Shown piece by piece: positions 6,788 through 12,700 of a stretch of DNA of 64,000 nt; the stretch's first letter is position 1; every line of letters begins with the position of its first letter. The position numbers were made by a program. This DNA comes from Escherichia coli (GTDB lineage: Bacteria > Pseudomonadota > Gammaproteobacteria > Enterobacterales > Enterobacteriaceae): the NCBI RefSeq assembly GCF_041248615.1, contig NZ_CP158427.1, one strand, 5' to 3'.

Positions 6788-9700
6788 TGACCACTACATA
6801 TTGAAAGTCAGTATGCAGTACATGTCATCGTAAAACCCTGTGATCTGGCGCAGGAAGGGCAGGCAGAAAGCCTTTATCATCAGCTGGCTGATTTTGATAT
6901 TGCCGTGCTGATCAATAATGCGGGCTTTGGCGATTTCTCTATGCCCTGGGATGCCAATTTAGCAAAAGTGAAACGGATGCTGGATCTGAATGTTAAGGCC
7001 CTGACCACACTTTCCCTGTTGTACACACACGATTATGCCGATCGGGATGCGACCCTGATTAATGTCTCTTCCATTGGTGGCTATTCAATTTTTGATATTG
7101 CAGTTACTTACTGCGCAACAAAATTCTTTGTGGCGTCATTTACAGAAGGGCTGGCGCAGAATCTGCGTGATCAGGGTAAAAAAATGCGGGCAAAAGTTAT
7201 CGCCCCGGGACCAACACAGAGTGAATTTATCACCCGTTCCTCAGACAAGGGAAGCATCTGTGGTGACGGTCTGTTTGCAGAGACGTCTTTTCTTACTGCT
7301 GAAAAACTGGCGGATTACATTTGGCAACTGTCTGAAAGCGACAGTACCGTAGGCATCATCAGTGATGATAACCAATTGATGCTTAAGTCCGCCGTCTGTC
7401 CTTATATTAACGTCCCGCATTAATGCCGGAACGTTGTCATTAACCAGGGGAATATCACCGATGTCTCATGAACATGCCGTTTCATTCCGGCACAACAACT
7501 GGCAGGTTGCAGCCACGCTCCGTTTACCTGAAGGATTTGATGACCGGCATAAATACCCGGCAATTGTCTGTGCTCATCCCATCAGCAGTTGTAAAGAACA
7601 GACATCCGGTGCAGTCTACGGTCGGAAACTGACTGAAGCGGGTTTTATCACACTGGCTTTCGATGCTTCCACTCAGGGAGAAAGCAGTGGAGAACCGCGC
7701 TTCAGCGAAAATCCCTCCACGCGTGTGGAAGATTTCAGTTGCGCGGCAGATTATCTGATGACGTTACCCTTTGTGGATGAAGAGCGTATCGGGGTTTTAG
7801 GGGTTTGTGGTGGTGGTGGGTATGCCATCAGTGCTGCCACCATAGACCATCGTTTCAAAGCCATAGCCACTGTGGTTGCCGCTAATTATGGTCGTATTAT
7901 GCGCGAAGGCGACGGCAGTCCGGATGTGGCGCTCAGAACGATTGAGGCTCTGGGGAAACAGAGAACGGCTGAGGCTCGTGGGACTGAGCTTCTTATCGTC
8001 GGTTATATTCCGGCCAGTGCAGAAGAGCTGGCGCATACAGGCATTGACGATATTGATATGACTGAGGCTGTTGATTACTACAGAACCCCACGTGGACAGC
8101 AACCCGGTTCACCGAATAAACTGCGGTTTACCAGTGTTGCACAAAACCTGAGCTGGGATGCGTTTTCCTTTACAGAAAAACTGCTGGTACAGCCATTACA
8201 TATTGTTATTGGCGATGTTCCTGGAGGCTTTGGCTCTTACCGTGACGGCTATGAACTTTATCAGCGTGCCCGCTCTGCAGAAAAAACACTGCAGATTGTG
8301 AAAGGGGTATCCCACTATGATCTGTATGATCGCCCTGAAGCGACATCGCAGGCACTGGCAGGAATAATACTATTCTTTAATAAACATTTAAGCGGATAAG
8401 AGACATTATCTCCTGTTTATCCGGCATGAACTTTATGGACGAGTAATACCGGACATTTTCTATAATGACAGAGTTACATTTATACAATGTCCGGCAGGGC
8501 ATAGAAGGGGCGAAAGAAAATACCTGGGCGAAGCCGCTGAACATCATTCTGGCGATTTCAATAAAGGTACTTGCTCGCGCTCTGTCATTTTCTGAAACTC
8601 TTCATGTTGCATTTCGATTTTTCTTCTAAAATCATAACTCGCATTCCTGTTCTTTTTATATACATCCATATCTATTTTTGTGACGAGTTCAAACCACAAT
8701 GTTCGCACTCCCCATGCAGCGTTATGAAACATTTCCGCAACGGCTATAGAGTCTGTATTAACTGCTTCAGTCATGTAGTCGCTAATACGTTCAGCGGTAA
8801 TTTTCGTTATTTCATCGTAATTCATTTTATCTCCTACAAGATTATTTAATGGAATGCAAAATATCTGGCCTGATAATAATGTTCCAGAATTAATATCTGC
8901 AGGCTATGTTAAGTTGTCCCCACACACAATCTACCTGTTTTCTCGTGTGTGCCACAGGCGCAATACATAAATAGTCTGGCCATTAAGTTCGTAACGGATT
9001 TCGTACTCGCCAGCAAAAATCCGTCTGACCTCCCAGGGTTCAAACTGAAACAACTGTTCTCCCATACGTGGATGAGTTAACAGAATGACCGGTGCCTGTG
9101 TCAGGGATTGCACCGTTCTGGCGGCCGCAGGTTTACTGGCCAGCACCAGAAAATCATATAACCGCGCCAAATCAGAAAGCGCCTTACTGGTCCACTTCAG
9201 TTCCATCAGCGTGGCACCGGTAACGGATTGTCAGTACTGAGGCTGTCCGCCCAGGCCTGTACAGCCTGATGGTCGATAACCTGTCCGGATGTCACATCGT
9301 CCAGGGCTTCCAGCGTCAGGCGATTACGCTCCTCCTCCTGGGCAAGCCATGCAGAAAGCGCCTGTTTGATAACCCAGCCCCGGGAGCGTTCCAGCCTGGC
9401 GGCCATCTGGTCGACTTTATCAGCCATAGGTAATGGCACATGCGCGGTAATGACTTTTGTTGCTTGTGCACTATTGTTTTTCATTTGCATATCCGATTAG
9501 TTGTTAATCATATTTAATCATAGTGATTACTTTCAGACGGAACAAGGCAAATAATGCGCGTCAGCGCATGTAAGGCGGCACGCTGTGGTTACATGTGATA
9601 CCGGAGTAAAACCGCCGAAGCCCGGCGTAAGCCGGTACGGATTGATAGATTTCACCTTGCCCATTCCCAGCCCTGCCAGACCATACCCGCTTTCAGCCAT

Positions 9701-12700
9701 GAGATAGCTTTTGTGCGCGGTCGGAGTGGTCCTGACGAGGGTTTACCCGAAGTCGGGGCGTATCTCCGCGTTAGCGGGCCGTCAGGGCCGCTTACGAGCG
9801 TGTATTCAGGGGTCAGCTTGGAATTCGGAAATTTTCCCACGCTAAGAGAATTGAGTTGAAAGGATGGTTACATCTAGGCCAGCTAACTCACTGAATGTAA
9901 ATGCTGTACGAAATATTCTGACCGTTCGATAATCGTTTGGCTTACTTCCGTACATTCCCTTGCACAGATGTACAGAATTGTACGAGTTCGGACACCAAAA
10001 CCGCTGTTGTCCCGCCATTCTGGCGATTCCTGAAAGTCATTTGACTAAAAAATAGGGGCTATTTCGAATTTTCTGGACACTCCTGACGCGGAGTCTGTGA
10101 CTTCAACCTGACACCTTACGCTCTTAGCGTACGATTTTTTCCGTTTCGTGAGTTGACCCCTTTATTTTCCAAATTCCAAACTGCCCCCTACATTTATACA
10201 ATGTCCGGCAGGGCATAGAAGGGGAGAAAGAAAATACCTAGGCGAAGCCGCTGAACATCATTCTGGCGATTTCAATAAAGGCATTTGCTCGCGCTCTGTC
10301 ATTATGATGATAAATACGATTTTAACGCCAGCACTCACCGTGGCGTCATCGGAGAGTCGCACACAAGGCTCGGGGCGATGTGTTCTGGTAAAGAGTACCA
10401 GATACTGCTTCCTGGTGAAATTCACATTAAAGAAAGTGGTAAGCGATAATATAAGGGCCGGGATTCCGGCCTTTTTATGCAGCCTTTATAACAGTGTATT
10501 AGTCATTCGCATATTCAACATATCCCTCCTCACAATGGTACATGCCATAATACATTCTCTTACCCTCCGGACCTTCAGCTTTAAATGGGACAAGAAGTGT
10601 TTTTTCATCTTCAACATCTGTTAAACTTCTTTCAATCTTTTCCCATGTAATTTTCGGGATTTCTGTACCAAGAAGTTGTACATCGTTGTCCCAGCGTTTC
10701 ATTCTTTGCAGGTAATCATTTTTTACAAACGTTCTGGCCTGTTCATCGCTGACCTGATAGCATGCCGGAGCTTTATCTTTAGACCAGAAAAAAACAGCAG
10801 TAAGAGCAATAATCGTTAAAATAAAAATAAATTTCATGCTAATTACTTTCATAAAATCTCCACAACTTCTGTCGTCCATTCAATATAAAAAAACATTACG
10901 AATATATCCGTACAATGTGAGCATACTGTGAAGTGGCTTTAACAATTATGAAATAATACAAGAGATCACATATTGCAGTGGTCTCTTTTTTATAGAAGAA
11001 ATCACAATTCATAATTGTGATTTATTATGCATGTCTGTTTTTCAGCATTGTGACCGCATCGGACTCAGGCATCAAAAACTGCACCCGGTGCCGTGCAGCC
11101 ACATCCAGCGCAAACACCTTCGTATAGACCTCCGTTGAGCTGATGGACTTATGCCCCATCAGGCTCTGCAGGACCTTCAGCGGTATACCGGCATACAGCA
11201 TGTGCATCGCATAGGAATGGCGGAACGTATGTGGCGTGACCGGGACAGAGAACGTCACACCATCAGCGGCAGCGGCGGCAACCGCCTCCCCAATCCAGGT
11301 CCTGACCGTTCTGTCCGTCACTTCCCAGATCCGCGCTTTCTCTGTCCTGCCTGTTCGTTTATTACGCCGTTCCATGGGGATTTTCAGTGTGGCCACCATC
11401 ATCTGCACCTGGCTGACGTACCAGGCGTCGGAGAGCGGAACCAGCCGGTGAGTCTGCTGACCGGCGGGCATTCTTCCTGCCGTCCTGGCGGCTTTTTCTG
11501 TCCGCTGCTTCAGAGTGGCCAGCTGCACAAACGGATACGGAGGCGCAAGCGAAAAATCCCCCCGCGTCAGCGCCAGTGCTTCATTAATGCGCGCACCGGT
11601 GTTCCACAGTGTGGCCAGCAGCATCTTGCGGCGCAGATCCGGGACGTAATGGAGCAGGGCGCTCACTTCAGGGGCCAGCAGGTAGGCCGTTGTGCCCCCC
11701 GTGGAGGTGGCCATTCTTCTCAGGGAGAGTGCTGTTGCAAAATCCACCCCCGGCGCAATGGGTAACAGGGAGACGCGTTCTGGTGAATTCTGCAGGGGAA
11801 TGACATTGTTCATGAGTTATTTTTCACGTAGCACACGCACTGTTTATGGCTACAGGTGGTTTTGCTGCTTTTGGGAGAAATGGGGTAATAATGCTAGGTG
11901 GCACCGAAGCGGGGGGGTGAATGTAAAGCTCTTTCGTACTGTGCATCGCATTGTACTCATCATTGAGTAAGTGCTAAACCATGTTAATAGGTGATACTCT
12001 GAACAACACCCCAGAACTATAAGCCCCCATCAATATGATCATGGCAGAAAAGATGCCGGCTTCTTATTAGAGCACTCTGCACTCTCCTAGACAGAACGAG
12101 CTTTGCCATGGAAAGCTCATCTACCTGGCTATTTGTATTGATGCTGTACAAAGATCATCTTAGCTTAGGAACTTTCGTCTACTATTTCTAACGGCAAATA
12201 TCTCAGAAAGGATTATTTGTTTTTATATTTTTTATAAAAACAAAATCCCTTCTGTTTATTTTTTTTATAAAAACAATAAACAAACATTTTGCCTTTATAT
12301 CAAATATAAAAAAAATAACACAATCTGTTTTTATTGTGTTTATTTGGATATAAATACTGAAAAACAAAGATGAAACAGAATTTTACTCTACAATGTCATC
12401 TTTGCATGGTTTTATTATCTGTCGCAATTTATGGTAATCTCACCATTCAAGGAAAATATTTCTTGAACGACCTTTCTTGTTGGGTAGAATAAGAAAAAAA
12501 TCATGTGGTGCTTTTATTTTTTTACACTTGGACATAATTAATGCAGAGATAGATAATGCCGTGTCATAGTGAACATAGCTCTGACGTTACATATAATCAT
12601 AATGGTATTACCAGAAGAAGGCCTGCAGAGGTAGGCATGGCTCATGATCAGTTTGAAGCTTTAATAGAAATATCTTCTATACATAGCCACAAGGTAATTC

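Follow-up and report, generated by a model that had tools for sequence, protein, structure and literature searches.

A segment of an Escherichia coli plasmid in which genes for a ParE-family toxin and a ribbon-helix-helix (RHH) antitoxin lie beside a gene for a 93-residue protein, the whole bracketed by direct repeats, raises the question of whether this arrangement is a mobilizable toxin-antitoxin (TA) cassette with a functional third component, as an earlier note on this DNA had suggested, or a conventional TA module caught up in plasmid rearrangement. The stretch that was analyzed (hereinafter the window) comprises 64,000 nucleotides of contig NZ_CP158427.1 and is a 100% match to the E. coli plasmid p14408_1 (NZ_LT599826.1, 137 kb); the locus itself, at 8475-10303, is a segment of IncF plasmid backbone within a heavily rearranged region of that plasmid. 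The features of the locus proved to be real and their biology ordinary: a plasmid TA module of a familiar type, a neighboring hypothetical gene that is conserved but not tied to the TA genes, and the scar of a rearrangement. Taken as a whole, we consider it probable that an ordinary ParDE-type pair is accompanied here by an independently selected 93-residue gene, and that the repeats derive from a transposition cointegrate that subsequently suffered a deletion.

The toxin gene (8931-9206, minus strand) encodes a 91-residue protein which matches the Pfam ParE_toxin family (PF05016, E=2.3e-16) over residues 3-90, that is, over its whole length, and which is annotated by the Prokaryotic Genome Annotation Pipeline (PGAP) as a RelE/ParE family toxin. 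The 94-residue product of the adjoining gene (9206-9490, minus strand) is a CopG/ParD-like protein with an N-terminal RHH domain (Pfam RHH_1, PF01402, E=2e-10, residues 14-51), so that both matches bear out the original call of parE with an RHH antitoxin. The antitoxin gene comes first and its stop codon overlaps the start of parE (TGATG), and the predicted operon has the intact architecture of ParDE-type type II systems. Upstream of it lies a cassette-specific region (9491-9556, minus strand; homology to plasmid pS88 begins only at 9557), which is read from the sequence as a candidate operator region: a promoter-like site, CTGAAA-18-TATGAT at 9536-9507, is overlapped by ATGATTAA and TAATCA repeats that are candidates for the operator of the TA promoter. 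If the pair acts as an addiction module in the manner of the ParDE family, then by analogy with its characterized members the antitoxin dimer would repress its own promoter and neutralize ParE, and cells losing the TA genes would be poisoned; the pair would therefore stabilize the plasmid and the DNA adjacent to it.

In ParDE of plasmid RK2/RP4, a type II TA system, ParE poisons gyrase and the antitoxin ParD is an RHH protein. The p14408_1 pair resembles it in the ParE_toxin match, in the precedence of the RHH antitoxin gene, in the overlap of the two genes and in its plasmid location, and has a candidate for an autoregulated promoter, whereas the conserved 93-residue gene after the toxin sets the p14408_1 cassette apart. 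Solved structures include only distant relatives of the pair (6xrw, E=0.004; 7etr, E=0.001). The same trio of RHH, ParE and 93-residue genes is carried by pEC958, away from RepFII, and the published analysis of that plasmid, in which its TA systems are given as hok/sok, ccdAB, pemIK and vagDC, left the RHH-ParE pair unrecognized (PMC4398462). The pair occupies 27012-27571 of pEC958 (our record L040), where a decayed ParD/ParE pair at 119866-120389 is likewise omitted from the published TA list.

The trio is common IncF backbone. It is present, at least 80% covered, in 974 complete E. coli replicons, and its place in both relatives examined, p14EC033c and pSCU-171-1, is immediately beyond the IncFII repA4/ori region, the order being repA1, about 900 bp with ori and repA4, and then the RHH, ParE and 93-residue genes. 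The window retains a remnant of the repA4 region (9557-9808), severed from the oriR and repA1 sequences to which it is joined in p14EC033c and pSCU-171-1. This remnant is 92.5% identical to pS88 (84169-84421 of the record), the match ending about 70 bp before yacA and overlapping an annotated RepA4 pseudogene; it is at position 9808 that the TA cassette of p14408_1 is separated from ori and repA1. A GC-rich stretch at 9533-9803 had been considered as the end of a group II intron, an idea that was rejected: Rfam gave no match to it at E<=0.1, and it belongs to the IncFII repA4 region. A group II intron reverse transcriptase/maturase is present in fragments elsewhere in the window, at 4461-5570, broken by an IS3-family element at 5577-6790.

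The site after IncFII repA4 houses interchangeable TA cassettes, namely the ParE/RHH cassette, yacABC and pemIK, given that yacABC lies there in pS88 and that tir and pemIK occupy it in R100 and pEC958 (PMC4398462). The p14408_1 cassette is like yacA-yacB-yacC of pS88 and pWR100 in standing directly after repA4 and in its layout of a TA pair plus a third gene. It differs from them in that its toxin is 24% identical to YacB (E=2e-4) and its antitoxin is without a significant match to YacA; moreover, the YacC of pS88 is a 282-residue 3'-5' exonuclease and not the 93-residue protein. An identification of the trio as yacABC, drawn from the pS88 gene table, was withdrawn once the pS88 sequence gave a different YacA and YacB and an exonuclease as YacC. 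Besides the exonuclease YacC, pS88 has a second yacA with a truncated yacB beside a DUF6404 gene (the two yac regions are at 9491-10932 and 21550-21944 in our record L033); this second yacA and its truncated yacB constitute another duplicated and decayed TA relic.

The direct repeats of about 115 bp which the earlier note had seen around the TA genes were recovered to within 1 nt, at 8475-8589 and 10189-10303. They are 115 nt long, lie 1714 nt apart from start to start and differ by 4 mismatches, with the similarity ending sharply on both sides; a repeat finder reports them as a single 115-nt direct-repeat family, far beyond chance. Repeat 1 is made up of the last 14 codons and the stop codon of the intact 93-residue gene together with a 69-bp downstream tail, and is contiguous with that gene in p14EC033c and pSCU-171-1. 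Repeat 2 consists of the same 69-bp tail, the stop codon and 14 codons (10258-10303, minus strand). These codons, MTEREQMPLLKSPE, carry one amino-acid change relative to repeat 1, and the body of the gene is absent; the second repeat does indeed keep only the last 14 codons, and it represents the relic of another copy of the 93-residue gene, in support of the duplication-and-deletion history that had been proposed. It breaks off at codon 80 against the remnant of a colicin M gene, cma, of which only a C-terminal part survives (10303-10449, plus strand; 'lipid II-degrading bacteriocin, missing N-terminus' in PGAP); repeat 2 is truncated by the junction at the left end of this remnant. Next comes cmi, the colicin M immunity gene, as an orphan (10499-10852, minus strand).

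The interval between the repA4 remnant and repeat 2 (9809-10188) is a composite relic of one or more Tn3-family miniature elements and has no transposase gene. Tn3-type inverted repeats (IRs) of 38 bp (GGGG...ACGCTAAG) were found three times in the window against 0.42 expected, at 9809-9846 (plus strand), 10123-10160 (minus strand) and 28658-28695 (plus strand). The first two are the left and the second IR of the relic, and a fourth IR, truncated to 28 nt (10161-10188, minus strand), is the best mate of the left one and directly abuts repeat 2. On the left the IR terminus is fused to the repA4 region (...GTGTATTCA followed immediately by GGGG) and on the right the relic runs into repeat 2, both outer junctions (between 9808 and 9809, and between 10188 and 10189) falling exactly at IR termini. 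The ColV-type plasmid p14EC033c has an intact 284-bp element with two 38-bp IRs and an identical right-hand junction (the IR followed by TACATTTATAC), beside a single complete 93-residue gene. With its GGGG...ACGCTAAG IRs of 38 bp, its length of 284 bp in p14EC033c and its lack of a transposase, the element is like a Tn3-derived inverted-repeat miniature element (TIME); unlike a TIME, the copy in the window is without flanking 5-bp repeats and is a composite relic in which a second IR is inserted in the right IR. As to whether the repeats are derived from insertion sequences, they are not insertion sequence DNA themselves, but one of them abuts a transposon end.

About 2000 plasmids contain the leftmost 250 bp of the IR element and only 31 its full composite form, and the mosaic formed by the junction of repeat 2 with cma is likewise present in 31 plasmids of PLSDB. 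The block running rightward from 9765 (44 bp of repA4, the IR relic, repeat 2, the truncated cma and cmi) is 98% identical in pLKSZ01, an IncI-gamma/K1 plasmid without the TA genes; its presence in IncI-gamma/K1 plasmids implies that the block has moved between plasmid families. The 115-bp repeats are the scar of a past plasmid rearrangement and not the ends of a mobile cassette.

The simplest history for this scar, and the most likely one, is that of a tandem pair of cassettes followed by a deletion. Tn3-family miniature elements transpose via cointegrates with directly repeated copies (PMC13367494), and the window element is taken by analogy to share this cointegrate-forming mechanism. Its replicative transposition into a sister or related plasmid, at a site within the repA4 region, would have generated a cointegrate with two tandem cassettes, after which a deletion would have removed the DNA from codon 80 of the second 93-residue gene to the 3' part of cma. 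Two observations weigh against this history. No 5-bp target duplication surrounds the IR element (ATTCA versus TACAT in the window; TATAA versus CTACA/TACAT in p14EC033c), and hence transposition is deduced solely from the precise junctions at the IR termini. Further, 4 mismatches in 115 are too many for a recent duplication within the plasmid unless alleles were later exchanged by recombination; the divergence of 3.5% suggests either such an exchange or recombination between different lineages.

The latter would be in keeping with a rival account, in which the tandem arrangement arose without transposition through unequal or homologous recombination of two plasmids carrying the IR element at different places, again followed by deletion. 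IncF plasmids recombine freely, the repeats have diverged as if they belonged to separate lineages, and both the lack of target-site duplications and the spread of the left part of the element through some 2000 plasmids are consistent with this route. Nevertheless, outer junctions placed exactly at IR termini are a signature of transposase action at some stage. A simple insertion of the IR element in repA4 was seen in no plasmid. We regard this rival as somewhat unlikely beside the history of a cointegrate and a subsequent deletion.

The 93-residue gene requires separate consideration. Copy 1 (8544-8825, minus strand) is preceded by an AGGAG ribosome-binding site 7 nt upstream and is labeled in PGAP as a pseudogene 'missing C-terminus'; since family alignments show conservation along the full length, including the motifs NAAWG..LW and VPLLK, it is an intact gene. 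The same call recurs on the copies on the replication-gene side (the rep side) of several plasmids (window 8622-8825; L003 6434-6631; L004 6323-6526; pEC958 117676-117879). The open reading frames (ORFs) concerned are full length relative to the family alignment in the window, L003 and L004, that of L003 with a 2-codon in-frame deletion, and in pEC958 other residues stand in for the last four at the junction with an IS481 fragment. The protein is soluble, the family being mildly acidic with an isoelectric point of about 5, and is confidently predicted to fold as a three-helix bundle of a generic kind. It has no family match in Pfam, NCBIfam, PADLOC, PHROGs or the sequences of the PDB, and the lack of a profile match together with the generic three-helix fold excludes a helix-turn-helix (HTH) regulator and SecB.

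Close homologs form 198 clusters at 90% identity, the named ones all from Enterobacterales, and a profile search of 1.84 billion representatives yielded no more than 77 clusters at 50% identity, with many fragments among them. By tblastn the gene is present in 2,581 of the 72,556 PLSDB plasmids, nearly all from Escherichia, Klebsiella, Shigella and Salmonella. The protein belongs to a small family of Enterobacterales plasmids. At least 80% of the gene is found in 1370 E. coli records, against the 974 replicons with the trio: the trio does recur as a unit elsewhere, and the 93-residue gene also occurs apart from the TA genes.

A second locus in the window (29390-30033) illustrates this independence. 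Here, as the earlier note had recognized, the 93-residue gene recurs intact (29752-30033, plus strand), convergent with parR/parM, and beside it is a frameshifted ParE pseudogene (29390-29624, plus strand) without an antitoxin gene. Over most of parE the locus is 92% identical to the first cassette, of which it is a degenerate copy; the second 93-residue protein, encoded on the strand opposite to that of the first, shares 90% identity with it. A ratio of nonsynonymous to synonymous substitution rates of 0.18 between the two copies indicates that the gene is under purifying selection. Plasmid pD72-F33 has the same layout as p14408_1, with an intact 93-residue gene beside a ParE pseudogene and no antitoxin, the protein being identical in the two plasmids (WP_001333089.1), and the identity band of this allele covers about 476-526 complete E. 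coli records. In roughly 400-500 complete E. coli replicons the gene thus survives undamaged although parE has decayed and the antitoxin gene has gone, and it is not kept solely with its TA pair. About 540 bp from the ParE pseudogene, at 28658-28863, lie the third Tn3-type 38-bp IR and some 170 bp that are 90% identical to 9805-10014, and pD72-F33 has the same IR relic at the same position relative to its ParE pseudogene.

Overall the family keeps varied company. In eight of the 17 distinct contexts sampled, the family member is preceded at a distance of 0-3 genes by a type II TA pair, and the pairs are of at least six unrelated kinds: RHH/ParE; an 83-residue protein with ParE, upstream of a 71%-identical homolog in a Salmonella plasmid and without detectable similarity to the p14408_1 pair; Phd/RelE-ParE, accompanied by a cysteine-rich ORF; HigB (PF09907)/HigA; HigB-like (PF05015)/HTH_3, in a Yersinia plasmid; and MazE/PemK. 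The other nine contexts have no recognizable TA pair; one homolog lies downstream of a partition-like ParA-like/RHH pair, and further ones have nothing recognizable upstream. Conversely, the ParE/RHH pair occurs in some plasmids without the 93-residue gene, and pO157 carries a truncated copy of it. We read the proximity to TA genes as membership of plasmid stability regions, in which replication, partition and TA genes are gathered, and conclude that the 93-residue gene is independently selected and does not serve this ParE as a dedicated partner.

Two points weigh against this conclusion. The gene lies on the parE strand 105 bp downstream of parE and has a strong ribosome-binding site, and because neither a promoter nor a terminator was found in that gap, transcription from the TA promoter probably continues into it in p14408_1; without a promoter of its own after parE it may belong to the TA operon. 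The second is that proximity in eight of 17 contexts, which by our judgment, rather than by a computed background rate, exceeds chance expectation, could mean a functional link. One may picture the 93-residue protein as a toxin-family-agnostic third component that serves type II TA modules of plasmids, aiding neutralization by antitoxins or modulating their turnover as proposed for PasC and the chaperones of toxin-antitoxin-chaperone (TAC) systems, with the trio as a functional tripartite system. A precedent for such a third component is pasABC of pTF-FC2 (PMC4803016), which the p14408_1 trio resembles in the order antitoxin, toxin, third gene and in having a toxin of the RelE/ParE superfamily; also, since the second locus derives from a copy that took in both parE and the 93-residue gene and has since decayed, the two have moved together at least once.

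Yet, unlike the third proteins of tripartite systems such as pasABC, paaR-paaA-parE of E. coli O157 and TAC, the 93-residue protein has no HTH or SecB-like match, and its gene persists without TA genes and accompanies unrelated TA families. It remains intact under purifying selection beside a toxin pseudogene that has lost its antitoxin, one or two other genes often separate it from the TA pair, and in Salmonella it is translationally coupled to a cysteine-rich ORF of 121-124 codons instead. With TA pairs occurring without the gene, and with the upstream TA genes elsewhere unrelated or absent, the suggestion that it is a functional third component of this ParE pair is not supported in the form proposed, and the finding that the earlier note had named as refuting it, the gene being widespread without TA neighbors, was in fact made. 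A looser link between the family and TA-rich stability regions does exist. We judge a tripartite system unlikely. A generic TA-linked role for the family is about as unlikely, as is a scheme in which the family is an unrecognized, toxin-family-agnostic accessory of plasmid TA or stability modules (acting for instance in antitoxin stability or toxin neutralization) and has in addition a second role, independent of TA genes, for which selection retains it in plasmids of the R100 type.

In several Salmonella plasmids the cysteine-rich ORF (of the CxxC type; L007 3630-4004, L008 3639-4004, L038 2139-2504, L039 2088-2453) overlaps the start of the 93-residue homolog by 4 bp, an association tighter than that of any toxin with this family, and a Dickeya plasmid has a 67-residue cysteine-rich ORF in the same place before the homolog. 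Full-length cysteinyl- and glutaminyl-tRNA synthetase genes lie just downstream of the homolog in Salmonella and Citrobacter plasmids of the MOBP/MPF_I type (L006-L009, L035, L038), and the genes upstream of it in these plasmids differ from one plasmid to another (HigBA, Phd/ParE and others).

The proposal that the segment between the repeats is a mobilizable TA cassette, excising and inserting by recombination at the 115-bp repeats, is highly improbable: the TA genes are bracketed by direct repeats 97% identical, at which RecA could delete or circularize the 1.7-kb segment, but both repeats flank them in only two near-identical records with the same context (NZ_LT599826.1 and NZ_MW808987.1), the unit is not found at different sites or replicons, it contains no recombinase, the repeats end at a terminus of a Tn3-type IR and at the junction of a deletion, the cassette occurs with a single copy of the repeat sequence in thousands of other plasmids, repeat 2 accompanies the cmi mosaic in plasmids without the TA genes, a synthetic junction of repeat 1 with repeat 2, standing for the predicted deletion product, is covered by none of the 72,556 plasmids, and selection would be expected to act against loss of the antitoxin gene. 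The possibility that the integrase encoded at 11025-11813 uses the repeats as att sites was also rejected, as this gene lies outside the repeats and there is no third direct copy.

The surroundings of the locus, in RefSeq order from left to right, comprise RepFIB, a recombinase, a 389-residue hypothetical gene, the group II intron fragments cut by the IS3 element, a short-chain dehydrogenase/reductase family oxidoreductase, an alpha/beta hydrolase, the 93-residue gene (as a pseudogene), the RelE/ParE toxin, the CopG RHH protein, the C-terminal fragment of colicin M, cmi, the integrase and an Afa-type fimbrial operon. In the region at 10303-16915 the orphan cmi, with the last 48 or so codons of cma, is followed by the integrase gene (11025-11813) and the fimbrial operon (12556-16915). 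The 389-residue gene (2673-3842, plus strand), beside RepFIB and a tyrosine recombinase, encodes a predicted membrane protein 91% identical to its counterpart in pEC958. A transposon-directed insertion-site sequencing (TraDIS) study of pEC958 described the 'hypothetical gene EC958_A0140' as protected from insertion and stated that pECL_A holds a homolog (PMC4398462); it is the only uncharacterized gene found protected in that study. As pECL_A carries a 67%-identical copy of the 389-residue gene and is without the RHH, ParE and 93-residue genes, EC958_A0140 is most likely the 389-residue gene, an assignment deduced from gene content and not read from the record; on the same grounds the 93-residue gene and its antitoxin were rejected as candidates. 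Given that identity, the cassette genes are outside the nine insertion-protected elements of pEC958, although polar effects make this uninformative.

The TA genes are of a standard and widely annotated addiction-module type, and the locus as it stands matters little. For annotators it is of consequence that the cassette is not YacAB, that the 'YacC' of the literature is a different protein, and that PGAP wrongly flags the 93-residue gene on the rep side as a pseudogene. The one real lead is the 93-residue family itself, which is under purifying selection and follows closely on TA pairs of unrelated kinds with unusual frequency.

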